Notes: a model not told the origin generated them from the letters alone. Positions 21,037 through 46,413 are shown, counted from the first letter of the stretch. The stretch: DNA of 46,413 nucleotides from Actinomycetota bacterium (GCA_035541035.1 DATLFO010000104.1:1-46413); one strand, 5' to 3'. Numbers and translations are program-made.

Positions 21037-21166
21037 TCCCCTCGGCGGCCAGCCGCGGGAGGAACGCGGCAGCCACGGCATAGCGACGCCGGCTGCGGCT
21101 GCTCTGCTCGGCCCCAGCGTGGGCCGGCCCAATGATCTCCTGGCCACCCCGCGCTAAGATGCATTC

Positions 21167-21192
21167 GACGGCCGCCGTTTCCGGCGGCCGTC
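21167..21192 (+). other. Perfect 11-bp stem-loop between the PucR and VIT1 genes (terminator or leader element)
   Basis: GACGGCCGCCG-TTTC-CGGCGGCCGTC lies 131 nt after the PucR stop and 63 nt before the VIT1 start. Confidence 0.4.
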
Positions 21193-21254
21193 GCGCATGT
21201 ACGGCATCGCGTCAAGGGATCCTTTCACCGGATCTCAAGGGGGCAGACGAAACG

Positions 21255-23687: not shown

Positions 23688-25103
23688 TCAGCGAAGATGC
23701 GGGTACCACCACGGGTCGGGCCGTTGCGCGTCGCTGATCAGGAAGGCCTGCCGGCGGCCGAAGCGTCGCAGCGCTGCCGGGCCCATCCGCGACCCGCCCA
23801 TGCCGCTGAAGTTGAACGAGCTCTTTTCGCCGTCGTAGACGAGCGCGGTCAGCGCGGCGTCGTTGATCGAAATCCCGCCCGCGTCGATGCGGCGTGCGAC
23901 GCCGAGCGCCTCATCGGCGTCACCGAACACCGCGCCGCTGAGGCCGTACCGCGTGTCGTTGGCAAGCCGGACTGCCTCGTCGGCGTCGGTGAAGGACATC
24001 ACCGGGATGACCGGCCCGAACGTCTCTTCGGTCATGACCTTCATCTCGTGCGTCACGCCGGTGAGCACGGTCGGCTTCAGGTACGAGCCGCCGCCGTGCT
24101 CTTCGATCTCGCCCCCGGTGTGCGCGGTCGCGCCGCGCGCGAGCGCGTCCTGCAGGTGCGCGGCGATCACCTCGATCTGCTTCGCGGCGATGATCGGCCC
24201 GATGTCGCCGGCGTCGGGCTCGGGAACGGCCAGGCGCACGCTCTTGGCCTTGTCCACCAGCCGATCTACGAAGTCGTCGAAGACGGACTCGTGCACGTAA
24301 ACGCGCTCGATCGACTGGCACGACTGACCTGCGTTCGCGGTCGAGCCCCACAGGATCGCGCTCGATGCCCGGTCCAGGTCCGCCGACGGCAGCACGATGG
24401 CCGGATCCTTGCCGCCGAGCTCGAGGAACGCGGGGATGAACCGTTTCGCGGCCCGGGCGGCGATCTTCGTGCCTGTGGCGACGCTGCCGGTGAAGCAAAC
24501 GACATCGCTTCGGTCCACGATCGCCTCTCCGGCCGAGCCGTCGCCGGCGACGATCGCGACGACGTTCTCCATGGCCGGGACCGTGGCGACGGTGGCGGCG
24601 AGCGGCTCGATGAAGCGCGGCGCGATCTCGCTCGGCTTGATCACCACCGCGCAGCCCGCGACGAGCGCGGGAACCGCGTCGATCAGGGCGAGCAGCAGCG
24701 GGAAGTTCCACGGGCTGATCACGCCCGCGACCGGATACGGCCGCATGCCCTGCTCGAGGTCGATACCCGGGATTGATGCGGGCCGGCGCTCGGTCCCGGC
24801 GAGCAGGTCGGGCGCGAGGGAGCACCAACGCTCGATCATGCGCAGCGCCGCATCGACTTCCATCTCGGATTCGACGCGGCGGCCGGTATCGGCCATGAGC
24901 GCCGCGGTGATCTCGCCCCGCGCCATGCCGATCGCGTCACGCCAGCCGTTCAATGCGGCGGTACGAACGTCGAGCCCGCCCGCTTCCCACACGGCCTGCC
25001 CGTCGCGGAGCCGCAGGGCAAGCTCGTCGAGATCGTCGGTGGACGGTGGCTCGAACGAGTAGTCGCTTCGGCCGGTCCGCGGGTTGCGTACGTCGATCGC
25101 CAT
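23688..25103 (-). CDS. NAD(P)-dependent aldehyde dehydrogenase
   Basis: ELGGKDP (catalytic Glu) and NAGQSCQSIERVYV (catalytic Cys). The start is set at ATG 25103 (MAIDVRNPRTG...). The 114-codon upstream extension in the ORF track overlaps the CN-hydrolase gene. Confidence 0.85.
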   Translation of the reverse strand: MAIDVRNPRTGRSDYSFEPPSTDDLDELALRLRDGQAVWEAGGLDVRTAALNGWRDAIGMARGEITAALMADTGRRVESEMEVDAALRMIERWCSLAPDLLAGTERRPASIPGIDLEQGMRPYPVAGVISPWNFPLLLALIDAVPALVAGCAVVIKPSEIAPRFIEPLAATVATVPAMENVVAIVAGDGSAGEAIVDRSDVVCFTGSVATGTKIAARAAKRFIPAFLELGGKDPAIVLPSADLDRASSAILWGSTANAGQSCQSIERVYVHESVFDDFVDRLVDKAKSVRLAVPEPDAGDIGPIIAAKQIEVIAAHLQDALARGATAHTGGEIEEHGGGSYLKPTVLTGVTHEMKVMTEETFGPVIPVMSFTDADEAVRLANDTRYGLSGAVFGDADEALGVARRIDAGGISINDAALTALVYDGEKSSFNFSGMGGSRMGPAALRRFGRRQAFLISDAQRPDPWWYPHLR

Positions 25104-25110
25104 GATGCCG

Positions 25111-26139
25111 TCAGATGATTCCTTCCCCATCGAGCCGCTCGATAACGGCTTTCTGGGCATCGAGGAACCAACCGCGGCCGGGCTCCTTGCCGTCGCCGAG
25201 CCCGTTGGGCGCGAAGTGCTTCGCATCGGCGTACGACGAGGCGTAGAGATCGAACCGGCTGCGGGCGAGCATGTTGCCCATCCCGGGACGGCGCCGCGCG
25301 CGACGCAGCGACGCAAGCTCGACGGGCGCGGCGGCGACCATCGACTCCCCCGGGCCCGCCTCGATGAGCACGCGGCCTTCGTAATCGACGATCTGCGATT
25401 TGCCGTCGGTGGAGTCGCCGGGGATCGGCGAGCCTTCAATGCCACCGGTGTTCGCGCTCACGACGAAGGCCATGTTCTCGATCGCTCGCGCGCGTTTGGC
25501 CACGTCCTTGATCGTCGCCTGCGGGCTCGACGCCTCGGACGTGGAGTGGCAGAAGACCTCGGCGCCGCGCATCGCCAGACAGCGCGCCACCTCGGGGAAC
25601 AGGATCTCGTCGGAGGCGATGCACGCGAGCGTTCCGATCTCCGTGCGAAGGACCGGGAACAGCGAATCGGCGCCGTAGACCTCAAGGTACCGGTCGAGCA
25701 CGTCGTGCGGCGTCGGGGTCATGAACGAGTTCAACCGCCGGTAGCGCAACGCGAGCGCACCCGACGGGTCGAAGATCAGGCACGATTGGAAGTACAGATC
25801 CGGAAACGCCGGGTCCCGCTCGTAGAGGTTCGCGGCCAGGTACAGGGTATTCGCCTGCGCGATCGCGCCGAGCGCCTCCTCCTCGGCGCCGTCCTTGTCG
25901 ACCGCAACGCATTCGCGCCACTGATCGAACGCCTCGCCGGCCGGATGGCCCGTCAGCACGTACTCGGGAAGCACGACCAGCCGGGTGTCGGGACCGGTGA
26001 ACGCCACGCTCGCCGCGACCTGCTTGCCGATCCGGGCGATGGCGGCGCGGATGATGATCCGGCCCTGCGCCGGGTCGTCCACCCCCGAGAGGGCCCTGCA
26101 GCGTGCCTGCAGCGCAAGCGCGCGATACGACTCTTCCAC
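25111..26139 (-). CDS. Carbon-nitrogen hydrolase (nitrilase superfamily) protein, atypical
   Basis: LVVLPEY (Glu), GTLACIASDEILFPE (Cys) and RAIENMAFVVSAN motifs are present. The expected YRK motif reads YRRLN. Confidence 0.7.
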   Translation of the reverse strand: MEESYRALALQARCRALSGVDDPAQGRIIIRAAIARIGKQVAASVAFTGPDTRLVVLPEYVLTGHPAGEAFDQWRECVAVDKDGAEEEALGAIAQANTLYLAANLYERDPAFPDLYFQSCLIFDPSGALALRYRRLNSFMTPTPHDVLDRYLEVYGADSLFPVLRTEIGTLACIASDEILFPEVARCLAMRGAEVFCHSTSEASSPQATIKDVAKRARAIENMAFVVSANTGGIEGSPIPGDSTDGKSQIVDYEGRVLIEAGPGESMVAAAPVELASLRRARRRPGMGNMLARSRFDLYASSYADAKHFAPNGLGDGKEPGRGWFLDAQKAVIERLDGEGII

Positions 26140-26186
26140 CCGGGGCCCCCTTGTCGATGCGACGATGGTCCATGATATGAAACAGG

Positions 26187-26993
26187 GTGGGCGCCGGGAA
26201 GGGGGATCGCGTCATCGACACACCGGTGGACATCAGGGTTCGTGACCGCGTCGCCTTCCTGACGCTGTCCCGTCCCGAGGCGCGCAACGCGATCGACGAG
26301 GCGATGCTCGAAGCACTGCCGCCCGCGTTGCGGCGCGTCCGAGACGACCCCGACGTGAAGGCGCTCGTGATCACCGGTGCCGGTGACGCCTTTTGCATCG
26401 GCCTCGACATCGACCTGCTCGAGCGTGCATTCGACGACCCCGAGTACTTCCGCGATGTCCTCGAGCGCTTCAAGCGGATCCTCGGCGACATCGAGGCGCT
26501 GCCCGTTCCCGTCGTGGCGGCCGCCAACGGCCTGACCCGCGCGGGCGGGTTCGAGTTGATGCTGTCATGCGACCTGGCCGTGGTCGCGGCCGAGGCGCGC
26601 ATCGCCGATCATCACCTCGCCTTCGGGATCGTGCCGGGCGGCGGCTCGACGCAGCGGCTGCCTCGCAAGATCGGCGAGCAGCGGGCCCGCGAGATCATCT
26701 TCACCGGGCGCTGGCTGACCGGGGACGAGGCCGCGCACTACGGCCTTGCACTGCACGCGGCTCCGCTGACGCGGCTGGGGGATGCGGTCGAGGACGTGGT
26801 CGCGCCGCTCCGCCACCGGTCGCGAACCGCGCTGGCGGCCACGAAAGCGGCGATGAACGAAGGTGCATCGCTGCCGCTGGTGCAAGCCTTGGGGGTCGAA
26901 ACCGACGTCTTTATGAGGTACCTGACGAACGACCCGCACGCCGCCGAAGGGTTCCGCGCCTATCGGGAAGGACGTGATCCGCAATGGCCCTAG
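26187..26993 (+). CDS. Enoyl-CoA hydratase/isomerase (crotonase) family protein
   Basis: VAFLTLSRPEARNAID, VITGAGDAFCIGLD and AAANGLTRAGGFELMLSCD motifs. The start is uncertain (GTG 26187 or a downstream GTG). Confidence 0.8.
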   Translation: MGAGKGDRVIDTPVDIRVRDRVAFLTLSRPEARNAIDEAMLEALPPALRRVRDDPDVKALVITGAGDAFCIGLDIDLLERAFDDPEYFRDVLERFKRILGDIEALPVPVVAAANGLTRAGGFELMLSCDLAVVAAEARIADHHLAFGIVPGGGSTQRLPRKIGEQRAREIIFTGRWLTGDEAAHYGLALHAAPLTRLGDAVEDVVAPLRHRSRTALAATKAAMNEGASLPLVQALGVETDVFMRYLTNDPHAAEGFRAYREGRDPQWP

Positions 26994-27439
26994 AGATCTC
27001 CAGCTTCGAGGCGTTCGCGCCGGGCACGTCGTTCACTACGCCGTCTCTGCACATCGACGAAAGCGATGCGGCCGAACTGATCCGCATCGGCGGCTACGTG
27101 CATCCGCTGTTCACCGACCCGACCTATGCGGCCGATAGCGTTTTCGGCCGCTCACCGCTTCCGGGCGAGGCGGTGCTGCATGCGATGGGCGGACTCGCCG
27201 AACGCTCGGGCCGGTTCGACGAGTCCGTCGTCGCGTTGCTGGGCTTCGACGCCGTGCGCTTCCACGCGCCCGCCTTTCCCGGCGACACGCTGCACATGAG
27301 CGTCGAGGTGATCCGGCGCGAGGCGCGGCCCAACGGCAAGCGCGGAGAAGTCGTGATGGCGTGGCGTTGCCGCAACGAGCGCGGCGAACTGCTCTGCGAT
27401 GCGACGGCGCGAATGCTGTTTCGTCTGCCTCACGCGTAG
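26984..27439 (+). CDS. MaoC-like (R)-hydratase / hot-dog fold protein
   Basis: 151 aa with a typical MaoC dehydratase layout (...YVHPLFTDP...GDTLHMSVEV...). It overlaps the crotonase stop by 10 nt. Confidence 0.7.
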   Translation: MALEISSFEAFAPGTSFTTPSLHIDESDAAELIRIGGYVHPLFTDPTYAADSVFGRSPLPGEAVLHAMGGLAERSGRFDESVVALLGFDAVRFHAPAFPGDTLHMSVEVIRREARPNGKRGEVVMAWRCRNERGELLCDATARMLFRLPHA

Positions 27440-28011
27440 AGCGGCGCGGAGATGTCGAACCATTCGACGTCGGAGCACAGCGATTGCCATTCGGCGAACA
27501 GCGCTTGCATCTCGGCGGGCATCTCTTTCTTCTCGCCCGCGCGGGCTTCGGCTTCGGTGGTGAACCAGTCCACGATGTGGATGCGGTTGCCGGGAAGCCA
27601 GACGGTCATGTGGCCTATAAGGTCGGGCCGCAGGCCGGCGAACTGATCGAACTTCTCTTCGATCGCTTCGTAGGCCTTCCGGTCTTTGACCGTCGCGCGC
27701 ATCATCTGCACGAAGCCTGCGTCGCCTGATCCTTCCTTCGGCATGTCCACGTCTTCGGACTCCAGGAACTCTGCGGGGCCGGCCAGCATCTTTTCGAGCT
27801 GGTTCCACCGGGCCGTTTGCTCTTCGCTGGCCGAGTTCTTCATCGCCAGCTCGCGGTTTTCGAACCGTGCGGCGATCAGCAGCTCGCCCTTGGTGGTGAT
27901 GCCGCCGGTCGCACCCAGAAATCCTTCGGCCGTCGCGTCGCGCTGCTCTTGCCATGCGCTGTTGATGCCGTCCGCGTCCGCGACCTTCGCGCGAATGATC
28001 TGTACGAACAT
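27430..28011 (-). CDS. Hypothetical protein with two ABM-like (dimeric alpha+beta barrel) repeats
   Basis: Internal duplication: [12 protein letters not shown]... at aa 1 and [12 protein letters not shown]... at about aa 99. GC3 is high. Its 3' end overlaps the convergent MaoC gene by 10 bp. Confidence 0.55.
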
Positions 28012-28068
28012 CTCGCCCCTCCTTCGTCGATCCCTCGGGTCGATCCTCCGCCCGCGCGGCGTGGGAAG

Positions 28069-28239
28069 TCAACTCGCTCTGGGGGTGACCTCTTTGTCGA
28101 TCCGGGCACCGCTGCGGTCACGTTCGATCTCGAGGTCGAACAAGACCTGCAGGTTGATCCAAAAGCGGTCGGACGTGCCGAAATAGCGCGCCAGGCGAAG
28201 CGCCGTGTCGGCCGAGATCCCTCGTCGGATGCGCGCCCC
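28069..28239 (-). pseudogene. higA: C-terminal fragment of a HigA-type (XRE HTH) antitoxin
   Basis: This frame reads (A)[54 protein letters not shown]. That matches the conserved second half of HigA antitoxins (...[26 protein letters not shown]...). There is no start codon and the N-terminal half is missing. Confidence 0.7.
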
Positions 28240-28481
28240 TCACGCCATCGAAAGCAGATCCGCCATTGATCGTTGATCCGGATGCTGTACTGACCCGATC
28301 GGTCGCCCTTGAGCCGCTCCAAACGATTTCCCGGCGGAACCTTGAGGTCCTCCAACGTGTTGGCCGCGTCCAGCATCCGGAGCCGGCGCAAAGCCGGCCG
28401 CTGCACGTCGGACCCGAAGCGCTTGACACGCTCGCGCCGGTACAGGCGTTCGGTGTCGCGATCCTTGAAGCTTTCGATCAT
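28224..28481 (-). pseudogene. higB: HigB-type (RelE/ParE superfamily) toxin lacking its last ~10 codons, fused out of frame to the higA fragment
   Basis: [82 protein letters not shown] is a typical HigB. The expected ...DVEIVDYH* end is absent. The frame instead runs on for 201 aa through the higA remnant into the next gene. Confidence 0.7.
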
Positions 28482-28566
28482 GACGCATAGGAACGACCTC
28501 CGTGAATACCGTCAAGCGTTAGGCTGGCGACCTTTGACCGGCTCCGCTCGCTCCGGGTATCAATAG

Positions 28567-28583
28567 GCGGAACGTCGTTCCGC
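28567..28583. promoter_or_regulatory. Perfect 8-1-8 palindrome upstream of the LLM oxidoreductase gene
   Basis: GCGGAACG-T-CGTTCCGC ends 11 nt before the ATG at 28595, just upstream of the GGAGA SD. It is also about 90 nt upstream of the divergent higB start. Confidence 0.4.
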
Positions 28584-28594
28584 TAGGAGAGACA

Positions 28595-29605
28595 ATGCAG
28601 CTGTCGTACGGGCCGTGGGGAGCGTCGCTCGACGAAGTCGTCGCGGCCTCGAAGAAGGCGGAAGACGCGGGCTTTTCACGGGTCTGGTTCGCCGAGCTCC
28701 ATCGCAGCGCGTTCGTTCCCGCCGCGGCCGTGGCAACCGCGACCACGCGCATCGGCGTGGGCACCGGGATCGCGCTCGCGTTCGTGCGCTCCCCGATGAC
28801 CACGGCGCTGGAGGCGATGGACACCGACGAGCTGGCCGGCGGCCGGTTCGTGCTCGGGATCGGCTCCGGCGTGCAGCGGCTCAACGAGAGCTGGCATAAC
28901 GTGCGCTTCGGCAAAGCCGTCGGCCACACCCGCGAGACCGTCGCGATCATCCGCCGGTTCATCGCCGAATCGCACCGCGGCGGATCGATCGAGGTCGACG
29001 GCGAATACGAACGGATGAGGCTGCGCGGCTATCAGCGGCCGTTCCCGCCGCAGCGCGAGCAGATCCCGGTCTATCTCGCGGCGGTGGGCGACGCGATGAC
29101 GCGGCTCGCCGGCGAGATCGGCGACGGCTGGCTCGGCCACGAGCTGGGATCGCCGCGGTATCTGGCGTCGGCGATCCTGCCGAACCTTCAAGCGGGCCTG
29201 TCGCGCGCGGGACGCGACCGGCGGTCGCTGGACGTCGTCGCCTCGGCCTGCTGCGCGATCGACGGCGACGGGCGGCTCGCCAAACGCTGGATGGCCGGCC
29301 TGGTCGCCTTCTACGCGACCGTGCGAACCTATGGCGAGTTCTTCGCTTTCCACGGCTTTGCCGCCGAAGCGGCCGCGGTGCAGGAGCGGTTTCGGGCCGG
29401 CGACGAGGCCGGCATGGTCGAGGCGGTGCCCGATGAGATGGTGGACGCGTTCGCGCTCGCCGGCACGCCCGACGAGGTGCGCGCCAAGCTGAAGGAATAC
29501 GACGGGATCGCCGACGGCATCAAGCTGTCGCCCCCCACGCATCTGGTTCCGGCCGAGGTCACGCGCCACTGCCAAGCCACGATCCTGGAGCAGCTCGCCC
29601 CATGA
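28595..29605 (+). CDS. Luciferase-like monooxygenase (LLM) class oxidoreductase, probably F420-dependent
   Basis: GFSRVWFAELH...RIGVGTGIALAFVRSPM...RFVLGIGSG fits the LLM TIM-barrel family. A GGAGA SD is present. Confidence 0.8.
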   Translation: MQLSYGPWGASLDEVVAASKKAEDAGFSRVWFAELHRSAFVPAAAVATATTRIGVGTGIALAFVRSPMTTALEAMDTDELAGGRFVLGIGSGVQRLNESWHNVRFGKAVGHTRETVAIIRRFIAESHRGGSIEVDGEYERMRLRGYQRPFPPQREQIPVYLAAVGDAMTRLAGEIGDGWLGHELGSPRYLASAILPNLQAGLSRAGRDRRSLDVVASACCAIDGDGRLAKRWMAGLVAFYATVRTYGEFFAFHGFAAEAAAVQERFRAGDEAGMVEAVPDEMVDAFALAGTPDEVRAKLKEYDGIADGIKLSPPTHLVPAEVTRHCQATILEQLAP

Positions 29606-30699
29606 ACGCGATCAAGCCCGCGTCGTTTCCCTGGTTCGAGTACGCGCGCTACACGTTCTCGCTCGGCCTCGAACACGCAGGCCGCGTGTGGCTCAGCGGC
29701 CACAGTGCCTCCGAGTACGACGCGCGCGAGGAACGCATCGTCGTCAAAGGCGGCATGGAGCAGCAGACCCGCACCGCCTACGCCAAGATCAGCGCGATCC
29801 TGGAGGCGGCCGGCCTGACGCTGGGCGACGCGACCCGCGTCGTCGAGTACGTGACCGCGAAAGGCATGGACCACTACGCCGAAGCGCGCGCGGTCCGTGA
29901 AGAGCTGTTCGGATCCGCGCAGCCGGCGGTGTGCACCGTCGTGGTCAACAGCCTGCTGCGTCCCGCCGCGTTCATCGAGATCGAAGTGACCGCCGGCGGC
30001 GGCGAGGACGACGGCATCGTGTACCTGCCCTCGATCGCCGCACCCGAGGCGGGCGAAGATCTCGTCGCGCAGACCGAGGCCATCTTCGACAAGGCCGCCG
30101 CGCTGCTCGCCGATGCCGGTCTGGGAATGGACTCGATCGTCAAGACCGTGGACTACACCACGCCGCGAACGCTCGCCGGCTACAAGCGAACCGGCCGCGT
30201 TCGCAAGGACCGGCTCGGGCCCGTGTATCCCGCGGCGGCGGGCATCCTGATGTCGCGGCTGCAGACGCCCGGCACGCTCGTGTCGATGGACATCACGGCG
30301 TCACGGCATCAGTCGGAGACCGTCAATCCGGGTTGGGAACGCTACGCGAAGCTCACCTACTCGCCCGCGGTGAAGGCCGGGTCGATGCTGTTCATGAGCG
30401 GCCAGGCCGCGCTCGATCCCGCGACCGAGCAGGCCGTGCACACCGGCGATGTCGCCGCGCAAGCCGAGTACACGTATCAGAACATCATCGAGGTCCTGAA
30501 GGCAGCCGGAGCCGGCCCCGAGAACTTGGTCAAAACCATCGAGTACGTCACGCCTGCCGGGCTCAAGCGCTACCGCGAGGTCGCCGCCGTCCGCGAACAG
30601 CTGCTGAAACAGCCCTACCCCGCCAGCACCGGCTGCATCTGCGAGACCCTCCTCCGCCCCGAATTCGAAATCGAAATCGACCCGCTCGCCATCCTGTAA
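29602..30699 (+). CDS. Three tandem RidA/YjgF/Rid-family domains in one polypeptide
   Basis: ATGA overlap with the LLM stop. There are three repeats of the helix-strand module (QQTRTAYAKISAILEAAGLTLGDATRVVEYVT / AQTEAIFDKAAALLADAGLGMDSIVKTVDYTT / AQAEYTYQNIIEVLKAAGAGPENLVKTIEYVT). There are also three C-terminal P...hEIEh motifs. Confidence 0.8.
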   Translation: MNAIKPASFPWFEYARYTFSLGLEHAGRVWLSGHSASEYDAREERIVVKGGMEQQTRTAYAKISAILEAAGLTLGDATRVVEYVTAKGMDHYAEARAVREELFGSAQPAVCTVVVNSLLRPAAFIEIEVTAGGGEDDGIVYLPSIAAPEAGEDLVAQTEAIFDKAAALLADAGLGMDSIVKTVDYTTPRTLAGYKRTGRVRKDRLGPVYPAAAGILMSRLQTPGTLVSMDITASRHQSETVNPGWERYAKLTYSPAVKAGSMLFMSGQAALDPATEQAVHTGDVAAQAEYTYQNIIEVLKAAGAGPENLVKTIEYVTPAGLKRYREVAAVREQLLKQPYPASTGCICETLLRPEFEIEIDPLAIL

Positions 30700-38581: not shown

Positions 38582-38926
38582 TCAGTCGCGGCGGAAGCCG
38601 ACCGGCACGGGCGGGTCGGTGAACATCGCGGTGTCGAGGAACTCCCACCAGTCCTCTTGGCTCACGCGCTCGGACTCCCAGCCTTCGTCGGCCTTGAGCG
38701 TGCCGAGCGCGGCACGGTAGGCACCCCACGCGGCCTCGTCTTCGAACGCGGCCCAGTTCTCGAGCACGTAGACGCCGCCGACGATCGAGTAGTACCAGCG
38801 GACCTCTTTGACCATCGGCAGGTCGCGGTAGAACCACTGCTCGCGCGCCTCGAGCCAGGACCAGAACTCCTTCATGTTCTCGCGCGCACGACGCGCGAGC
38901 CGCATTCGGTACCGCAGATAGATCAC
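38582..38926 (-). CDS. Hypothetical Trp-rich 114-aa protein (possibly a ferredoxin-like alpha+beta fold)
   Basis: ATGA overlap with the cupin stop, and high GC3. No family was recognised. Confidence 0.5.
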   Translation of the reverse strand: MIYLRYRMRLARRARENMKEFWSWLEAREQWFYRDLPMVKEVRWYYSIVGGVYVLENWAAFEDEAAWGAYRAALGTLKADEGWESERVSQEDWWEFLDTAMFTDPPVPVGFRRD

Positions 38927-39552
38927 ACCTCACCCCCGAACGTCCGGACGAAGCACGGCCCGCCGCACGCCGGCAGCGGATCGCCGGCGACGACGAAAGC
39001 GTACGCGGCCTGCGTCAGATCGAACAGCTCCGCGGTGACGGCCGCGGGCGCGCCGGCCTCGACGCTCTCGGCCAGCCAGGCCGCGTCGCGTTCGCCTCGG
39101 CGCAGCCGTCGCGCCAGCCTGTTTCCGAGCGGCGAGGGCTCGACCGTATGCGCGGCATCGTCGTGCAGAGACCCGAACATTGTTTTGACCATCGGCGTCG
39201 GAGCGCCGGACTCCGAGGTTTCGCGCCACCGGGCCGGGCCGTCGAAGCGCGCGAACACCAGGCACTCTTCGGCGGCCTCGGTCCAGGAGCGCACCGACCC
39301 GGCCGGCACGTATCCCCAGTCGCCCGCGCGATACGTCACACCGCTCATGTGCAGGACGCCGCGGATGACGACGAGCTCCTCGGCGGCCTCGTAGAAGCCG
39401 GATACCGGCCGCGACCAGCCCGCCGGGAAGCGCACGAAGAGCGTCTGCGCGCGTGACGTCTCGTCGCTGCGGAGCCGAACGATCGGTACGGGCGCGGTGC
39501 CGCCGGGAATGGGGAACTCGGTCCAGCCGGAGACCGATTCCGGCGTGATCAC
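38923..39552 (-). CDS. Cupin domain protein (ChrR-like cupin)
   Basis: GTG 39552 overlaps the upstream stop (GTGA). The cupin core is LFVRFPAGWSRPVSGFYEAAEELVVIRGVLHMSGVTYRAGDWGYVPAG. The upstream part of the listed 317-aa ORF lies out of frame over the heme-oxygenase gene. Confidence 0.6.
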   Translation of the reverse strand: MITPESVSGWTEFPIPGGTAPVPIVRLRSDETSRAQTLFVRFPAGWSRPVSGFYEAAEELVVIRGVLHMSGVTYRAGDWGYVPAGSVRSWTEAAEECLVFARFDGPARWRETSESGAPTPMVKTMFGSLHDDAAHTVEPSPLGNRLARRLRRGERDAAWLAESVEAGAPAAVTAELFDLTQAAYAFVVAGDPLPACGGPCFVRTFGGEV

Positions 39553-40259
39553 GGGTGGTGGGCCGCGAGATCGCTCATGAGCTGCTCGGCCTCTTCGACG
39601 GACACGTGCCGCAGGCCGAAGTCGGCGGCCAGCTCGTCGGTGAAGTCGATCTGGTGCTGCCAAGCGCCGTTGACCTCGTCCACGCAGCGTTTGATCTGAT
39701 CGTCGTCCAGCGGCATCGAGTTCATCTTCTCGTGGTAGGACTTCAGGAATCCGCGCGGGTCCTCGATGCGATCGAAGCGGAAGAACGCGGTTCCCTGCTC
39801 GTCGAACCCGTAGGCCTTGTTCATGATCCGCAGGTTGATGCGCTGCGCGAGCACATTGCCGAGGTATCGCAGCCATTGGTGCGGCGCGAACGCGGGCGGA
39901 AAGCGATCGATCGTCGAGCGGATGGCGGCGACGTAGGACTCGGTCTGCGGCGACGGCTTGACGCGGTCACGCCAGTCCTCGCCCGCCAGGAAACGCATGT
40001 CGGCGTCGATGGCGGCACTGCGGTGCAGCTCCGGCGTGTGCATGCGGCCCACGACCGAGTCGTCCTTCAGGGCCTCCGACGTCTCCTCCAGCGCCGCGTA
40101 GATGTAGGAGAGCCGGCCGAGATACTCGATGTAGGCGTCCTTGGGAAGCTCGGCCTTGAAGAACACGACCATGAAGGGCCGGCGCTCGGCGGCACGATGG
40201 ATCTCGGCGCTGTCGCGCATCAGGGATTGCCACAGCCCGGGCTCGTCCCGCTCGCTCAC
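39549..40259 (-). CDS. Heme oxygenase family paralogue with a degenerate distal-helix motif
   Basis: GAGGAG sits 6 nt before GTG 40259. A proximal-His context (SAEIHRAAERRPFM) is present. The canonical RYLGDLSGGQ reads RYLGNVLAQR. Confidence 0.65.
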   Translation of the reverse strand: MSERDEPGLWQSLMRDSAEIHRAAERRPFMVVFFKAELPKDAYIEYLGRLSYIYAALEETSEALKDDSVVGRMHTPELHRSAAIDADMRFLAGEDWRDRVKPSPQTESYVAAIRSTIDRFPPAFAPHQWLRYLGNVLAQRINLRIMNKAYGFDEQGTAFFRFDRIEDPRGFLKSYHEKMNSMPLDDDQIKRCVDEVNGAWQHQIDFTDELAADFGLRHVSVEEAEQLMSDLAAHHP

Positions 40260-40336
40260 CGCTGCCTCCTCGGGTTCAAGATAGGGGTCGGGCGCGACCA
40301 CCCCGCCGACGGCCGCGCCCCGACCCTGCGTCGATC

Positions 40337-41047
40337 CTACGCCTGTGCGGCGACGAGATGCTTATCGCCGAGAAGCGTCGCGAGCTCGATGTTGTATTCG
40401 TAAGCGACCATGACCTCTTCAATAATGAGCTTTTTGGTGGCCGCGTCTACCGGGAGGTCATCGAGGATCGAACGGTATTGCTGCTTGAACTCGGCGGCGT
40501 CGCCGATCTCGGCGAAGTCGTAGTAGGTCAGGCCTTCGCCGTTGAGCTTCCACGCGTCGCGAAGCGCCGCCGCGATGAACAGGCCGCCGGAGAGGTCGGC
40601 CATGTAGCGCACGTAATGGTGCGCGACGAACTGCGCAGGGGATGCGTTGTTGATCCGGTCGCAATACTCCTGGACGACCGGCAGGATCGGATAGGTGCCT
40701 TTCCAGTCCGGGCCCGCGAAGAACGCCGCGTCGGCCGCGACGTGCTCGCGCCGGTACAGGTCCTTGAAGATCACGCGCGAGGCGACCGGATCGTCGAGCA
40801 TCTGCTCGGTCTTGGTCTCGAGCGCGTCGTAGATGTACCAGGTCTGCGCGAGCAGGTCGGCGTAGCCTTCCTTGCTGACGGTCGCTTTGACGAGCGACTG
40901 CTCGAACGGAGAGTACTCGGCGCGCTGATGGTCGCCCCAGGACTCGCGGCGCATCACGCGAGAGAACGGCTTCGTTGCGATGGCTTCGTCGACCTTCTCG
41001 CCGAGGCGAGTGGACGCCTCTTCGACGCGCTTGAGGATCTTGGACAT
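40337..41047 (-). CDS. Heme oxygenase (biliverdin-producing type, HmuO/HO-1 family)
   Basis: GGGGGAG sits 7 nt before ATG 41047. Proximal-His context GDHQRAEYSPF and distal helix VAHHYVRYMADLSGG. Length is 236 aa. The upstream part of the listed ORF overlaps the IclR gene end. Confidence 0.75.
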   Translation of the reverse strand: MSKILKRVEEASTRLGEKVDEAIATKPFSRVMRRESWGDHQRAEYSPFEQSLVKATVSKEGYADLLAQTWYIYDALETKTEQMLDDPVASRVIFKDLYRREHVAADAAFFAGPDWKGTYPILPVVQEYCDRINNASPAQFVAHHYVRYMADLSGGLFIAAALRDAWKLNGEGLTYYDFAEIGDAAEFKQQYRSILDDLPVDAATKKLIIEEVMVAYEYNIELATLLGDKHLVAAQA

Positions 41048-41129
41048 GACCTGCTCCCCCTGGGAGGCCGGGAACGCCAGCATTGAGTGGCTTCTTTGCG
41101 ACGATCTGTCGTCAACGGTATCGGGTTCG

Positions 41130-41164
41130 CGACAACCCGTCAAGAACATAGTGACGGATTGTCG
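41130..41164. promoter_or_regulatory. Imperfect 13-bp inverted repeat in the heme-oxygenase promoter region
   Basis: CGACAACCCGTCA (41130-41142) and TGACGGATTGTCG (41152-41164) have one mismatch. They flank the AT-richer spacer AGAACATAG. The element lies between the IclR stop and the HO start. Confidence 0.35.
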
Positions 41165-41172
41165 GAAAAAGC

Positions 41173-41946
41173 CTAGGGCCGGTAGCCCAGGCGGCGGGAG
41201 AGCCGGTCCGTTGCGTCCAGAAGCTTCTTGGCCAGGTCGGTGGCCTCGCCGCGGAAGCGCTCCAGCGGGCCGCACACACTGATCACGGCCGCAGGCTTGC
41301 CGTCGTGGGAGAAGACCGGAGCGGCCACCGAGCCGGCTCCCTCCATGCGCTCCCCCAGCGACATCGCGTAGCCGCGATCGCGGATGTCCTTGAGCTCCTT
41401 CGCGAGCGCCGAGCGGCTCGTGATCGTCAGTCCGGTCAGCCGCTCGAGCGGCTCGGTCAGGTAGTCCGTCTGCTCATCCTCGTCGAGATAGGCCAGGAAG
41501 GCCTTCGAGGAGGCCCCCGCATGCAGCGGAACGCTCAGCCCGAGCTGCACCACCATCTTCACGTCGCGGTCGGGAGTGACCTGATCGACGTAGACCCGCC
41601 GGTCGCCCGTGCGCAGCGACAAGGTCGCTGTTTCGTGGGTCTCGCGCGAGAGCGCTTCCAGCACCGGCCGGGCCACACGCGGAACCTCCGTGCGGTTCAC
41701 GAACGCAAGGCCGAGGTGCAGAGCACGCGGCCCGAGGGTGTAGCGCCGCGACGCCTCGTCGAGCTCGATGAAGCCCTTGGCCCGGAAGCTCGACAGGATC
41801 CGGTAGACGACGGCCTTGGACAGGTTTAGGGCTTGCGCGATCTCGGTGACGCCGAGCGTGGGCTCGTCCGCGTCGGCGAACAGCGCCAGCACGTCGGCGG
41901 CTCGCTCGATCGCGACGATCGTCTGTCCCTGCGCCTCACGCGCCAT
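41173..41946 (-). CDS. IclR family transcriptional regulator
   Basis: The N-terminal wHTH is IERAADVLALFADADEPTLGVTEIAQALNLSKAVVYRILSSF. The C-terminal IclR effector domain reads ...GAGSVAAPVFSHDGKPAAVISVCGP. The start is set at ATG 41946 (MAREAQG). Confidence 0.85.
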   Translation of the reverse strand: MAREAQGQTIVAIERAADVLALFADADEPTLGVTEIAQALNLSKAVVYRILSSFRAKGFIELDEASRRYTLGPRALHLGLAFVNRTEVPRVARPVLEALSRETHETATLSLRTGDRRVYVDQVTPDRDVKMVVQLGLSVPLHAGASSKAFLAYLDEDEQTDYLTEPLERLTGLTITSRSALAKELKDIRDRGYAMSLGERMEGAGSVAAPVFSHDGKPAAVISVCGPLERFRGEATDLAKKLLDATDRLSRRLGYRP

Positions 41947-42051
41947 GATCGCCAGCGTACCGCACAGCGAAACGAAATCGAAACGCCGTTTCGCGTCGCC
42001 GTTCGTACCGTCGACGTGCGGCGGATGCCGGAGAGGGGCCGGGGGCCCCGG

Positions 42052-42119
42052 ACCCTGTGCAACCAAGTTGCAATGAAGGCGCGACGGGGGGCCAGGGCTG
42101 TAACTTGGTTGCACAGGGT
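42052..42119. repeat. Perfect 18-bp inverted repeat with a 32-nt spacer between the hydantoinase and IclR genes
   Basis: ACCCTGTGCAACCAAGTT (42052-42069) and AACTTGGTTGCACAGGGT (42102-42119). Each arm contains a nested half-palindrome, TGCAAC-N3-GTTGCA. Confidence 0.7.
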
Positions 42120-42179: not shown

Positions 42180-43610
42180 CTAGGTCCGGCGGAGGTAAAG
42201 GCCTGGGAAGTCATTGGCGATCTCGCCCTGTCGGTACATCGGGATGCCGCGTACGAGCGTGGCGGCGGGCCAGCCGCGCACGGCGACCCCGCTGAAGGGC
42301 GTGTGGTCCTGCGCGCTGCGGCAGAGCTCGGGCGTGACGATCTGCTCGAGCCCGACGTCGATGATCGCCAGATCCGCGTCGGCGCCGACGGCGATCGTTC
42401 CCTTACGCGGATACAGGTTGTAGGTGCGCGCGGGTGCGGCGGAAGCGACCTGCGCGATGCGATCGAGCGGGATGCCGCGCTTGTGATGCCCTTCGCTGAT
42501 CAGCACCGGATACAGCAGCGCGGTGCCACCGAAGCCGGGCAGCGCCGGCCACAGGTCCTCGCCCTTGGACTCCTCCATGCAGCAGGCGTGATCGGACGCG
42601 ACGGTGCCGATGCGGCCGTCGGCCAGGCCCTGCCACAGCGCCTCGTTGTCTTCGGCGTCGCGGATCGGCGGGTTCACTTTGCCGCCGAGCCCCTTCCCTT
42701 CGAGCATCGCCACGTTGAGCGCGAGGTGATGCACGGTCACCTCCAGGTTCGCGTCCAGCCCGTAGCGATGCCGCACCTCGTTCGCCTTGTCGAGCGCTTC
42801 CCCCGACGACAGATGCAGAAAGTTCGTTCGCACGTGCGTCGCGTCGGCCAGCACGCCGGCCTCTTCGATCGAGAGCTGCTCGGTCAGGGGCGGCCGGCCC
42901 GCGGCGTACTCGGCCAGGCCGCGCACCGAAGGATCCTGCTTCGCGCGCTCGATGAACACGCGAAGCAGCTCGGCCTGCTCGCAGTGCAGCGACAGCGAGA
43001 TACGTCCGTCGTGTGCGAGATCCGCGGCCGAGACCGCCTCCATGATCTCGAACAGATGACCGAGGTCGTACTCCTCGGACATGGTGTAGCCCTTAGCGTC
43101 GCGCGAGTCGGCCGACAGGTTCAGGCCCTTGTAGAACATGTAGTACTTGAAGCTCGCCACGCCCATCTCGGAGACCAGCCACGGGATCTCGGCGATGTGC
43201 TCGGCCGTCATCGGCGCCAAGTGAAAGCCGTAGTCAACCTTGGCGTGACCGTCCACGGCGGCGAGCACCTCGGGGAAGATCTGGCGATACGGGCCGGTCT
43301 TGTTCAAATAGTGGCTGCCGGTGCGGAAGTACGAGATCACCGTCGTGACGCCACCCACCAGCGACGAGGTCGTCTCGGATTCGGTGTCCTCGGTCAGGCC
43401 ACGGTAGATGCCGAGGTGATAGTGCGAGTCCACCGCGCCGGGGAAGACGTGCTTGCCGCGCGCGTCGATGGCCTCGTCCGCATCACCCGGCCCGAGGTCG
43501 CCGGCGATCGACGCGATCCGTCCGTCCTTGATCGCGATGTCGCCGCGGACCTCACCGACGAACGGAATGACCAGCGTTCCTCCGGTTACGACGACGTCGT
43601 AGCGGGCCAT
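42180..43610 (-). CDS. Cyclic amidohydrolase (hydantoinase/dihydropyrimidinase family)
   Basis: The metal-ligand motifs DSHYHL, FKYYMFYKG (carboxylated Lys position), LHCE, HLSS and ASDHAC are all present. The start is at ATG 43610 (MARYDVVVTGG). The remainder of the listed 1032-aa ORF is an out-of-frame run through the PrpD gene. Confidence 0.85.
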   Translation of the reverse strand: MARYDVVVTGGTLVIPFVGEVRGDIAIKDGRIASIAGDLGPGDADEAIDARGKHVFPGAVDSHYHLGIYRGLTEDTESETTSSLVGGVTTVISYFRTGSHYLNKTGPYRQIFPEVLAAVDGHAKVDYGFHLAPMTAEHIAEIPWLVSEMGVASFKYYMFYKGLNLSADSRDAKGYTMSEEYDLGHLFEIMEAVSAADLAHDGRISLSLHCEQAELLRVFIERAKQDPSVRGLAEYAAGRPPLTEQLSIEEAGVLADATHVRTNFLHLSSGEALDKANEVRHRYGLDANLEVTVHHLALNVAMLEGKGLGGKVNPPIRDAEDNEALWQGLADGRIGTVASDHACCMEESKGEDLWPALPGFGGTALLYPVLISEGHHKRGIPLDRIAQVASAAPARTYNLYPRKGTIAVGADADLAIIDVGLEQIVTPELCRSAQDHTPFSGVAVRGWPAATLVRGIPMYRQGEIANDFPGLYLRRT

Positions 43611-44962
43611 GGGACCGTCACCTCTCCTTCGCGCAACGCGCGCTCGACCGCGTCCGCGCCCCCTTCGGACAGCACGCGGGACGCGTTGTCGCGGAACTTC
43701 CGCGCGACCTCGTCTTCGGACAGCGGCCGTCCCGGGCCTCCGCGGTTCTGCAAGACCTTCTGCTCCAGATCCCGGCCGTCGCGGGTGCGCACGCGCACGA
43801 TCGCGGGAAGCTCGTCGGGATAGATCGCGTCGCACGCGGGGTCGGCGACGATCTCGATCCGCTGCATCAGCGCGCGCCGGTCCGGATCGGCCGCGAGCGC
43901 ATCGGTGAAGTCGTCCAATCCGAGCCCGAGCCCCCCGCCGCCGTGCAACGCGGCCGCGACCGCGTACGGCCCCGAGAACTGCGCCTGGTAGCCGGTCGCG
44001 GGCGCACGCTTCGCGTTTATCGGCTCGCCAATGGTGCGAACGGCCGGCGCCGCGACGCCGACCGTGATCGATTCGACGTCCTCCGGCTTCAAGCCCGCGT
44101 CGCGCAGCGCGATGGCCGCGTCGATCGCGGCGTGGGTGAAATGGTTCGCCGGATACGGCTTGAAATGAAGCCGGCGGATCTCCCATTCGCCGGGCGCGTG
44201 CAGCGGCGCCTCGTCGAACTCGCCCGACAGCCACGCCTGATAGAAGCCGAAGCGGCCCTCGAACGCCGTCGGCGCGCCGGTGATGCCGCGCGAGGCCAGC
44301 AGCGCGGCGGTCACGCCCGCCTGCGCGGCCCAGCCGCAGTGCAAACGCTTCACGGTCCCGCCCGCGCGGTTTCCTTCCAGCACGCCCGAGCCCATGCTGA
44401 CCGCGATCCCGAGCGCATGCGCGATCCCGTCCGCGTCCAACCCGAGCAGCCGGGCCGATGCCGCGGCCGCGCCGAGCGCGCCGCAGATCGAGGTCGCGTG
44501 CTGGCCGCGCTCGAAGAACATCGACTGCCTTCGCGCCGTGTCGTAGCCGGCCATGCCGGTGCGGATGCAGATCTCGATCCCCGCCGCAACCGCATCGGCG
44601 AACGCGTCGCGCGAGGCGCCAACCCGCTCGGCCACCGCGAACGCCGCGGGCACAACGGAGGCCGACGGATGAAGGATCGACGGCAGATGCGTGTCGTCGT
44701 AGTCGAGCGAATGCGCCAGCACACCGTTGGCGAACGCGGCGCTCGTCATCGGCAGCCGCTCGCCGCCGCCGAACACCGACGACTGCGCGGCGCCCCCTTG
44801 CTCGCGCAGCATCGCGATCAGGGACTGCGAGGTGTCCAGCGGTAGCGCCGCGACCGCGACCCCGACCGTGTCGAGCACGTGCAGCCGCACGGCCGCAAGA
44901 ACGCCGGCCGGGACCGCGGGCGCGGCGGCGAACGCGCCGAGTCGCGCGGCGGCGGTGCTCAT
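43586..44962 (-). CDS. MmgE/PrpD family protein (2-methylcitrate-dehydratase-like)
   Basis: ...NGVLAHSLDYDDTH...LHPSASVVPA...GGTVKRLHCGWAAQAG...FKPYPANHFTH are typical PrpD-family motifs. ATG 44962 overlaps the cyclase stop (ATGA). Confidence 0.8.
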   Translation of the reverse strand: MSTAAARLGAFAAAPAVPAGVLAAVRLHVLDTVGVAVAALPLDTSQSLIAMLREQGGAAQSSVFGGGERLPMTSAAFANGVLAHSLDYDDTHLPSILHPSASVVPAAFAVAERVGASRDAFADAVAAGIEICIRTGMAGYDTARRQSMFFERGQHATSICGALGAAAASARLLGLDADGIAHALGIAVSMGSGVLEGNRAGGTVKRLHCGWAAQAGVTAALLASRGITGAPTAFEGRFGFYQAWLSGEFDEAPLHAPGEWEIRRLHFKPYPANHFTHAAIDAAIALRDAGLKPEDVESITVGVAAPAVRTIGEPINAKRAPATGYQAQFSGPYAVAAALHGGGGLGLGLDDFTDALAADPDRRALMQRIEIVADPACDAIYPDELPAIVRVRTRDGRDLEQKVLQNRGGPGRPLSEDEVARKFRDNASRVLSEGGADAVERALREGEVTVPWPATTSS

Positions 44963-45768
44963 GCGCCGACGACCGCGAGCGGCCGAACCGGCGATCCGGT
45001 CCCGCCGACGATCTTGAGCGGCGCAAGCACGAACACGAACTCGTGCACGTCCGCCGCGGCCAGCTCTTCCAGCGCGAGCGTTTCCATGATGTGGATGCCG
45101 TGTTCGACCAGGAGCACGCGATGAGCGGGCAGCAGCGCGTGTCCCGCGCCGGCCGGCAAACGCTCGAACGCGATCGAGTCGGCGCCCGCGGCGCGAATCC
45201 CGCGAGAGGCCAGCCATTTCGCGGCCTCCTCGCCCGGACCGGGCACGCCGGTCGCGCGGCCGACGTAGGCGTCCGCATCGGGCCAGCGGCGCCCCCAGCC
45301 GGTCCGGATCAACGCGACGTCGCCTTCGCGAAGCGACACCTCGCACGCTTCCAGGTCCGCGGCCGTGACCTCGTACGCCGGATCGCACGCGTCGATTCCG
45401 AGCGCGCGCGGAACGTCCAGCAGCACGCCGCGGCAGACCCACGGCGCGACGGTCTCGATCCCGTGGACCGAGAACCGGCCGCCGACCGACGCCTCCGCCG
45501 CATCGTGCCCGCCGAACAGCTTGCCGTCGTGCGAGACGTGCGCGAGCGCGTCGATGTGGGTGCCGACGTGGCCGCCGGTGACGATCATCTCGTTGGCGGC
45601 GCTGCCACCGTCGGCGCGTTTCATGTCGCCGTGCCGGCGCACCAGCGCCATCCGGAACTCGGGATGGTTCGGCGACTGCGGCATGCCCGCGAACATCTCG
45701 CGGCCCAGGTCGAAGATGCGCACGCCTCGCGCGACCGCATCCAACAGCGGATCAGGCAACGACGCCAC
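44959..45768 (-). CDS. Putative cyclase family (kynurenine-formamidase-like) metal hydrolase
   Basis: ...IFDLGREMFAGMPQSPNHPEF...GGHVGTHIDALAHV... matches the cyclase-family HxGTHxDxPxH-type motif. The start is uncertain; GTG 45768 overlaps the CoA-transferase end by 17 nt. Confidence 0.7.
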   Translation of the reverse strand: MASLPDPLLDAVARGVRIFDLGREMFAGMPQSPNHPEFRMALVRRHGDMKRADGGSAANEMIVTGGHVGTHIDALAHVSHDGKLFGGHDAAEASVGGRFSVHGIETVAPWVCRGVLLDVPRALGIDACDPAYEVTAADLEACEVSLREGDVALIRTGWGRRWPDADAYVGRATGVPGPGEEAAKWLASRGIRAAGADSIAFERLPAGAGHALLPAHRVLLVEHGIHIMETLALEELAAADVHEFVFVLAPLKIVGGTGSPVRPLAVVGA

Positions 45769-46413
45769 GCTCCCGAAGCTCGGCGATCCGCTCGGCCGGC
45801 ACGCCGATCGAGCCCAGCACCTCGTCGGTGTCGGCACCGAGAGCACGTCCCGTCCAGCGGATCGATCCCGGCGTGTCGCTCATCCGAAACAGCAGGTTCT
45901 GCATGCGAACGGATCCGAAGTCCTCGTCCGGCACCGGCGTGATCATCTCGGTCGCGCGCACGTGCGGGTCGTCCATCAGCCCGGCTACGTCGTAGACCGG
46001 CGCGATCGCGGCCTGTGCGGCCTCGAACGCATCGATCACCTCGTCGCGCGTTCGCTCGGCGATCCACGCGGCGACGTAGCCGTCGAGCAGATCTCCGTGC
46101 CGCGCGCGGCCGACGCCGGTGGTGAACCACGGCTCGTCGCACACCTCGGGATGGCCGACCAGCTCCATCACACGGCGCGCGATCGTATCGGCCGACGTCG
46201 AGATCGCAACCCAGGTTCCGTCCTTGGTCTTGTAGACGTTGCGCGGCGCGTTGTTGTCGCTGCGGTTGCCCCGGCGCGGCTGCACCTCGCCGAGCTGGTC
46301 GTAGACGATCGGCTGTGGCCCGAGCACGGTGACGATCGGCTCGAGGATCGAGATGTCGATCTGCTGTCCGGTTCCGCCGCGCGCGTCGCGGTGATACAGC
46401 GCCATCATCACCG
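45752..46413 (-). CDS. Family III (CaiB/BaiF) CoA-transferase, C-terminal part (5' end beyond the window)
   Basis: ...ALYHRDARGGTGQQIDISILE...APRNVYKTKDGTWVAIS...DDPHV...GADTDEVL are typical CaiB-family motifs. The frame is open to the window edge. Confidence 0.75.
   Translation of the reverse strand, partial: VMMALYHRDARGGTGQQIDISILEPIVTVLGPQPIVYDQLGEVQPRRGNRSDNNAPRNVYKTKDGTWVAISTSADTIARRVMELVGHPEVCDEPWFTTGVGRARHGDLLDGYVAAWIAERTRDEVIDAFEAAQAAIAPVYDVAGLMDDPHVRATEMITPVPDEDFGSVRMQNLLFRMSDTPGSIRWTGRALGADTDEVLGSIGVPAERIAELRERGVVA

Follow-up and report, generated by a model that had tools for sequence, protein, structure and literature searches.

Heme oxygenase (HO) is among the best-studied oxygen-activating enzymes, and the GDLSGG motif of its distal helix is treated as near-universal. 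Here we describe a tandem pair of HO-family genes, HO-A and HO-B, which is followed by a cupin gene and a gene for a small protein on the minus strand of a stretch of DNA from an uncultured soil actinobacterium (Actinomycetota; GCA_035541035.1, DATLFO010000104.1:1-46413; the whole 46,413 nucleotides analyzed are called the window), and we compare this locus with the closest described systems. In HO-1, the D140A exchange yields a peroxidase, G143H is inactive, and Tyr134 and Arg183 bind the heme propionates (PMC5623701). In the Leptospira enzyme LepHO, R8, K167, R171, and Y123 hold the propionates, presenting the alpha-meso carbon (PMC5542595). HO-A and HO-B belong to the same fold family as these canonical HOs (HO-1, HmuO, Synechocystis HO-1; PF01126), and Synechocystis HO-1 (1we1) is the best solved relative of both (E ~4e-34). 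The proximal His, Tyr58, and Arg136 are common to all of them (residues in HO-1 numbering). Unlike the canonical enzymes, HO-A has Ala139, and HO-B reads GNVLAQ in the distal helix, is devoid of K18, K179, R183, and Y134, and carries additional arginines at positions 30 and 31. Furthermore, the two proteins are paired almost constantly within their lineage.

Pseudomonas aeruginosa PigA/HemO seats its heme in a rotated manner and has beta/delta regiospecificity, and moving the propionate-binding basic residues changes the meso carbon that is cut. PigA is a proven oxygenase with a glycine-rich distal helix. HO-B would be alike in the re-seating of its substrate and differs in that the distal helix is altered, too. 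Among HO-like pseudoenzymes, PfHO binds heme without degrading it (PMC3488054; PMC11634067). HO-B shares with PfHO and plant HO2-type proteins that catalytic residues are lost and that the protein is nevertheless retained. PfHO and the plant HO2-type pseudoenzymes are not known to have the proximal His, whereas HO-B keeps it in 79/79 relatives and is encoded in an operon together with an active-looking HO-A. Our literature searches yielded no publication on the HO-B subfamily or on HO pairs accompanied by these accessory genes.

The distal helix of HO-B reads RYLGNVLAQR and aligns without gaps (HMMER) opposite RYLGDLSGGQ of Synechocystis HO-1 and rat HO-1, which corresponds to the changes D140N, S142L, G143A, and G144Q. 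The canonical pattern Gly139-Asp140-x-Ser-Gly143-Gly144 is thus replaced by GNVLAQ, and the substitutions at positions 140, 143, and 144 reported in a preliminary description of the locus are borne out. The same description had called the motif destroyed, which is not what the family shows, since a fixed replacement motif is found in ~80 relatives. It had also overlooked that K18, K179, and R183 are lost and that an Arg-Arg pair is gained. These features were assessed in 83 HO-B relatives, the named ones all from uncultured Actinomycetota, 79 of which are full-length and were mapped onto HO-1 numbering. His25 (His21 in HO-B), Ala28, Glu29, Phe33, Tyr58, Arg136, Gly139, and Phe166 are kept in 79/79, and the WLRY-G stretch of the distal helix is invariant in the family alignment. 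Position 140 is occupied by Asn in 70 sequences, by Tyr in 7, and by Met in 1; Ser142 is replaced by Leu, position 143 is Ala or Gly, and Gly144 is exchanged for Gln (73/79). Moreover, all four propionate-holding residues are substituted, namely Lys18 by Phe, Leu, or Met, Tyr134 by Trp, Lys179 by Leu or Phe, and Arg183 by His (78/79). The Arg-Arg pair (R26-R27 of HO-B) lies five and six residues after the proximal His and results from Asn30->Arg in 78/79 and Ser31->Arg in 74/79 sequences.

Judged by sequence, the distal motif of HO-B is exceptional within the HO family. Among the 150 best HO representatives drawn from 1.84 billion proteins, 121 carry GDLSGG and none carries GNVL[AG]Q; GNVGGR, which deep HO-B branches also contain, occurs once. 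All relatives have an intact HO-B reading frame, identical substitutions are fixed in sequences of 43-87% identity, and the ratio of nonsynonymous to synonymous substitution rates (dN/dS) is 0.145 relative to the closest relative. The HO-B pocket hence appears rebuilt and under purifying selection, not decayed, which makes the previously suggested role beyond simple biliverdin production plausible. Maximum-likelihood analysis places HO-A and HO-B in two monophyletic groups (support 99 each) that are not sisters, and HO-A is nearer than HO-B to ordinary actinobacterial HOs. As separate and well-supported clades, the two are not recent duplicates.

For HO-A, ~76 relatives were gathered, all named ones from uncultured Actinomycetota. 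The proximal His, D140, G143/G144, K/R18, Y134, K179, and R183 are all kept in 8/8 members of the clade, and dN/dS is 0.109. Gly139 is replaced by Ala throughout the clade, so that ADLSGG stands instead of GDLSGG (RY[LM]ADLSGG in every member), and the exchanges Lys22->Trp and Met34->Glu are likewise invariant. The next-best matches to HO-A are ordinary Microbacterium-type HOs, which read GDLSGG. The earlier view of HO-A as a canonical enzyme therefore needs a qualification: the proximal-His context is kept, but the distal helix carries the invariant Gly139->Ala exchange. Because HO-A has all of the oxygen-activating residues (His25, Asp140, Gly143/144) as well as the propionate anchors, it most likely performs the classical opening of heme to biliverdin, CO, and iron. 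The top matches in the representative library, P0324 (985 aa), P0325 (796 aa), and P0326 (532 aa), contain two to four tandem canonical HO domains.

The explanation that we favor, with moderate confidence, is that a repressor controls the four genes as a single heme-catabolic operon within an actinobacterial heme-oxygenase regulon, in which HO-A would open heme and HO-B would be a neofunctionalized, His-ligated tetrapyrrole-binding paralogue with a re-seated substrate and altered chemistry. Since the proximal His, Glu29, Tyr58, Arg136, Gly139, and the aromatic residues of the pocket do not vary, HO-B should still bind a tetrapyrrole with His ligation. A different seating of the substrate is probable, since the three propionate anchors (K18, K179, R183) have been exchanged for hydrophobic side chains or His and two adjacent, invariant arginines have been added; the residue positions, viewed against HO-1 and PigA structures, would be compatible with a rotated seating. 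As Asn/Gln replaces Asp/Gly-Gly in the distal helix and the substrate would be re-seated, HO-B most likely catalyzes another step than HO-A, which might consist in cleavage at another position, in the use of another tetrapyrrole, or in oxidizing the product of HO-A further. The sequence data show the gene anatomy, the pattern of residues, purifying selection, synteny, and the common operator, whereas heme binding by HO-B, its rotated seating, its different chemistry, and the repressor logic are what we infer.

The features of the locus are as follows.

40337-41047, minus strand: HO-A, heme-oxygenase family, 236 aa (PF01126, 160 bits, profile positions 3-201 of 204)
39549-40259, minus strand: HO-B, divergent heme-oxygenase paralogue, 236 aa (PF01126, 140 bits, profile positions 5-199 of 204)
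38923-39552, minus strand: ChrR-like bicupin, 209 aa (weak Cupin_7 and DUF4437 matches, fold search)
38582-38926, minus strand: small Trp-rich DABB/NIPSNAP-like protein, 114 aa (predicted fold)
41096-41114: operator site 3, just 3' of the -10-like TACCGT at 41115-41120 (position weight matrix (PWM) score 21.5; 31 nt from site 2)
41127-41145: operator site 2, over the -35 hexamer TTGACG at 41138-41143 (PWM 23.5; 22 nt from site 1)
41149-41167: operator site 1, yGACr-N3-yGTC palindrome (PWM 20.4; position kept in other loci)
41171-41192, minus strand: terminator-like hairpin with a T-run where the IclR gene ends
41173-41967, minus strand: IclR-family regulator gene (Pfam match)

All four open reading frames lie where the preliminary description had placed them, including the two 236-aa HO-family genes in tandem, both of which match PF01126. 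These two are the sole PF01126 matches in the genome (3.1 Mb, 88% complete). The IclR gene and HO-A are separated by 125 nt, and a 77-nt spacer with a GAGGAGG ribosome-binding site lies between HO-A and HO-B. The GTG start of the bicupin gene overlaps the HO-B stop (GTGA), as had been noted. The overlap between the bicupin stop and the start of the small-protein gene, which had been given as ATGA, also reads GTGA, the start codon being GTG. The public gene call for HO-A comprises 248 aa from the start ATG 41083; ATG 41047 is favored because orthologues have 233-236 aa and a GGGGAG ribosome-binding site is present. A lowered GC content at third codon positions (GC3) in the 3' part of HO-A had been taken as a hint of foreign origin. 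It is found in the last ~50 codons, where GC3 drops to 0.70-0.73, but not over the whole gene, whose GC3 of 0.86 equals that of its neighbors. A foreign origin of HO-A was rejected since the dip is confined to these codons and HO-A orthologues accompany HO-B throughout the lineage.

Synteny was compared in 13 distinct loci (L numbers) from uncultured Actinomycetota, down to ~43% protein identity, two of which (L002, L007) are cut by contig ends. The order HO-A/HO-B/cupin/small protein is found in L001, L004, L006, L023-L026, and L028. The module of L005 has no cupin, L003 has neither cupin nor small protein within 1.7 kb 3' of HO-B, and in L027 the order is HO-A-cupin-small protein with HO-B 4 kb away. 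The survey of gene neighborhoods that the first description had called for thus finds the order in most loci, and by this measure the four genes form a conserved module. HO-A falls into ~76 and HO-B into ~82 clusters, many of which share contig sizes. In an even sample of 401 genomes from the phylum, HO-B-type genes occur in nine, eight of them from the family of the window (including this genome) and one from another family. Within this sample, HO-A adjoins HO-B in every carrier whose flank is present, and the small protein occurs in eight of the HO-B-carrying genomes and in none of the others.

The predicted HO-A promoter, with TTGACG as -35 and TACCGT as -10 element, is covered by the three operator sites. 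The palindrome yGACr-N3-yGTCG(tgA) is present in all 12 HO-A upstream regions examined, in most of them in three copies that are spaced by 22 nt and then by 31-33 nt. The middle copy overlaps the TTGAC of the -35 element and the last copy follows a TAnnnT -10 element, which, as read from the sequence, lies 17-18 nt after TTGAC in most loci. A weight matrix of the operator was trained on other genomes alone, with the window and its close relative L001 left out, and the 3.1-Mb genome was scanned. The middle site of the window is the best match genome-wide (23.5 bits), and the other two rank 3rd and 7th. Clusters of at least two sites number only three in the genome. Three sites each are found in the HO-A promoter and, on contig C125, in the spacer that separates hemE-hemH from a TetR gene, and contig C223 has a weak pair. 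The triple operator on C125 (3196-3258) is flanked by hemE-hemH (hemH 1206-2096, hemE 2111-3118) and a divergent RutR-like TetR gene (3303-3908). Two sites lie upstream of hemE in a second genome of the family (G218), and the detached HO-B gene of L027 has a triple operator of its own (27.5, 18.1, and 21.4 bits). In the HO loci of Nocardioides soli and Nonomuraea soli (L029, L030, L031), the operator stands upstream of ordinary GDLSGG HO genes, with three sites and one further site at a second HO gene in Nocardioides soli and two sites in Nonomuraea soli. It is absent from the Microbacterium-type HO loci examined.

A terminator-like hairpin lies between the IclR gene and the HO promoter. The distribution of the operator and the hairpin that closes the IclR gene lead us to predict that the HO operon is its own transcription unit in a heme-oxygenase/heme-synthesis regulon, and the operator would be heme-responsive. 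The TetR protein encoded on C125 was considered as a candidate for the cognate regulator. Its best solved relative is RutR, and its orthologues in four relatives have no operator or hemE nearby. Another TetR gene, accompanied by one operator site (C374), had no informative match. The operator motif presumably resembles hrtO, the operator of HrtR, which we take as a lead only. A lone operator-like site (17.5 bits), which may be due to chance, is located at the start of an M23 peptidase gene (window 8812-8830).

The operon had been described as lying downstream of an IclR gene. The adjacency is there, but the IclR gene is not a conserved neighbor, as it is not found beside the HO pair in L002, L005, L023, L024, L026, and L028, and the hairpin separates it from the HO promoter. 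In Nonomuraea soli (L008), the IclR orthologue sits between the small-protein gene and an amidohydrolase gene, and this small-IclR-amidohydrolase array is divergent from PrpD-cyclase-CoA-transferase. The CoA-transferase/cyclase/PrpD/hydantoinase-like operon of the window (42180-46413) and its IclR gene share 56-61% identity with the Nonomuraea soli genes. The IclR gene probably belongs to this upstream hydantoinase/PrpD/cyclase/CoA-transferase cluster and not to the HO operon. A 21-nt inverted repeat (95% complementary, arms 26 nt apart) lies upstream of the IclR gene, between it and the hydantoinase-like gene (window 42052-42119), and is unrelated to the HO operator. IclR was rejected as regulator of the operon on the grounds of this repeat and of the changing neighborhood.

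The third gene had been annotated as a ChrR-like cupin, in agreement with the weak Cupin_7 and DUF4437 matches and with the predicted fold. Its AlphaFold2 (AF2) model (pLDDT 90) is all-beta with two barrels, and the top Foldseek matches are 3o14 (Maqu_0586) and 2qdr (Npun_F5605; E 2e-8, TM ~0.63-0.65), so that the two-barrel architecture is that of ChrR-type/DUF4437 cupins. ChrR anti-sigma factors consist of a zinc-binding N-terminal anti-sigma domain and a C-terminal cupin. In the operon bicupin, only the Cupin_7 part is matched and, unlike in ChrR-type proteins, the helical N-terminal anti-sigma domain and a conserved His/Glu metal site are missing. Metal cupins carry the motifs G(X)5HXH(X)3-4E and G(X)5PXG(X)2H. 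Neither is conserved in the bicupin, and an alignment of 11 orthologues contains no conserved His, for which reason a role as metal-dependent dioxygenase was rejected. Of the operon's genes, that of the bicupin evolves fastest (dN/dS 0.275).

The fourth gene encodes the Trp-rich alpha+beta protein of 114 residues that had been described, with nine Trp and neither His nor Cys. No Pfam or NCBIfam match was found for it; NIPSNAP (PF07978) is matched weakly (E ~0.08) in only 3/22 relatives and not by the window protein. The AF2 model (pLDDT 88) shows a beta-alpha-beta-beta-alpha-beta barrel, with HapK, the NIPSNAP protein Atu4242, olivetolic acid cyclase (OAC), and ABM cofactor-free oxygenases as Foldseek neighbors (TM 0.5-0.65). 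The predicted fold is thus like that of NIPSNAP/ABM/DABB proteins (HapK, Atu4242, OAC, SnoaB, IsdG/IsdI), from which the small protein differs by the lack of a significant sequence match and of any His or Cys. IsdI ranks only 46th in the fold search. Enzymes of the IsdG/MhuD type use a catalytic Asn/Trp/His triad, the His of which ligates the heme iron. Without a His, heme ligation of this type is impossible for the small protein, and IsdG-like heme degradation was rejected. The N-terminus MIYLxYRM is kept in 22 relatives, and the protein is ~70-90% identical across actinomycetes. Cultured actinomycetes carry it without any HO pair, hence it is not HO-specific. In Nocardioides soli (L009), it comes after a DUF1838 gene, and DUF1838 genes recur by the small DABB protein or the HO cluster (L009, L026:16079-16732, L027:6623-7414). 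In the favored explanation, the metal-free bicupin and the His/Cys-free DABB protein would be accessory ligand-handling or cofactor-independent proteins.

Recurrent neighbors of the HO cluster are CoA_transf_3/PrpD/Cyclase/Amidohydro_1/IclR, MC_hydratase (mesaconyl-CoA-type)/MaoC, and HpcH_HpaI genes, and further RidAx3+LLM+ECH, CN_hydrolase+Aldedh, DUF1838, VIT1, and Liv-type ABC transporter genes. The same gene set is present in the window. These neighbors suggest a link of the HO cluster to amide or imide catabolism. Tight co-regulation with the HO operon is disfavored because there are no shared operators in the window. A regulon common to both was rejected, as no further operator clusters exist in the window or genome and L027 has one HO-type site, located between its ECH and CN-hydrolase genes. 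Genes for an aldehyde dehydrogenase, a CN-hydrolase, ECH, MaoC, an LLM monooxygenase, and a triple-RidA fusion lie near the HO cluster in window 23688-30699 and in L025-L028, in differing arrangements.

Several genes around the HO clusters relate to iron or tetrapyrroles. A VIT1-family iron transporter with an N-terminal extension of ~220 aa is encoded at window 21084-22400, and a VIT1 gene lies near the HO cluster of L028 (15765-16702). Directly upstream of HO-A in the latter locus, a Liv-type ABC transporter operon ends with a gene (L028:5215-7227) for a 670-aa fusion of an ABC ATPase with a membrane domain of the PucC/MFS type; members of the PucC family have been linked to the handling of tetrapyrroles. 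In L024, a ferrochelatase gene (3574-4512) follows a mesaconyl-CoA-hydratase-like gene ~3 kb upstream of the HO pair. Phytochrome (PHY) and ferredoxin-dependent bilin reductase were not found in the 88%-complete genome, and supply of a bacteriophytochrome chromophore was rejected on this basis. In the family of the window, ALAD (hemB) is present in 19/21 genomes, hemE in only 6, and ferrochelatase in only 5, and several carriers of the HO pair, including a genome of the same genus, are devoid of hemE and ferrochelatase. This pattern hints that the lineage scavenges heme or makes it by another route, and the HO pair may therefore act on scavenged heme.

Other explanations for HO-B have to be weighed against altered chemistry. 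As the main alternative, HO-B might be a non-catalytic heme- or bilin-binding partner of HO-A, i.e., a pseudoenzyme serving as chaperone, buffer, sensor, or product carrier, which we regard as possible but do not favor. It has lost Asp140 and Gly143/Gly144, whose mutation abolishes HO-1 activity, it keeps the proximal His and a hydrophobic pocket, a catalytically equipped HO-A accompanies it in nearly all cases, and PfHO, which is HO-like and binds heme without degrading it, provides a precedent (PMC5623701; PMC3488054). However, no other stretch of the family is as conserved as the distal helix and the new Asn, Gln, and Arg-Arg are fixed, which is more than simple binding needs, and the propionate anchors that HO-B lost should have been retained in a simple heme buffer. 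In addition, pseudo-HOs such as PfHO are not known to have the proximal His that HO-B retains. Two HO isozymes occur in other bacteria, and HO-B could likewise be a second biliverdin-forming enzyme in which Asn140/Gln144 substitute functionally, working under other conditions or with another electron donor. Its strong PF01126 score (140 bits) and the retention of His25, Tyr58, Arg136, and Gly139 of the distal hydrogen-bond network would fit. We consider this unlikely, as the main HO-B motif is found in 0/150 of the best HO representatives, of which 121 carry GDLSGG, as all three propionate anchors are lost together, and as HO-A and HO-B share one operator and usually one transcript and so are not differentially regulated. 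Decay to a functionless duplicate, to which the replaced catalytic residues might point, is refuted by the conservation data and has next to no probability: dN/dS is 0.145, the frames are intact, the substitutions are fixed across 43-87% identity, and HO-B has its own operator where it stands apart from HO-A. Several points also weigh against the altered-chemistry reading itself. The loss of Asp140 and Gly143/144 is equally expected of a non-catalytic heme binder, and Asn140 might still organize the distal water, so that HO-B could be an ordinary isozyme. Furthermore, all carriers are uncultured metagenome-assembled genomes of related lineages, so that the synteny counts are not independent, and the heme-responsiveness of the operator is deduced solely from the genes downstream of it.

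A wider role of the operon is compatible with either altered chemistry or mere binding by HO-B. The operon might constitute the first part of a hitherto undescribed bacterial route for mineralizing tetrapyrroles, in which HO-A would open heme and HO-B and the accessory proteins would cut further methine bridges down to pyrrolic imides. A hydantoinase-like imidase, a cyclase-family hydrolase, CN-hydrolase, LLM+RidA, PrpD, CoA-transferase, mesaconyl-CoA-type hydratases, and an HpcH/HpaI lyase would then consume the imides, and methyl-substituted dicarboxylates would enter central metabolism. The same catabolic families lie beside the HO cluster in differently arranged loci as well as in the window, the small DABB protein of Nonomuraea is encoded inside a hydantoinase/PrpD/CoA-transferase cluster, and one operator site stands between ECH and CN_hydrolase in L027. 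Chemically, heme and chlorophyll are known to degrade to maleimides such as hematinic acid (PMC7318184; PMC10343206). We nevertheless rate this pathway as quite improbable: no other promoter of the window carries the operator, cultured actinomycetes have the island genes without any HO pair, inherited gene order may account for the common neighborhood of the related carriers, and for none of the enzymes has a pyrrole or imide substrate been demonstrated.

HO-B stands for a natural and strongly conserved HO subfamily in which the iron ligand is kept, the distal helix is replaced, and the carboxylate-binding residues are moved. The HO-A/HO-B pair could serve directly as a test case for the way in which the HO scaffold governs regiospecificity and the choice between oxygenase and other chemistry. 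The triple operator points to an undescribed heme-related regulator that might be traced in culturable Nocardioides or Nonomuraea. If true, the link to amide- and imide-hydrolyzing neighbors would bear on the recycling of tetrapyrrole carbon and nitrogen by soil bacteria, and the residue pattern of HO-B points to a heme chemistry that may so far be undescribed.

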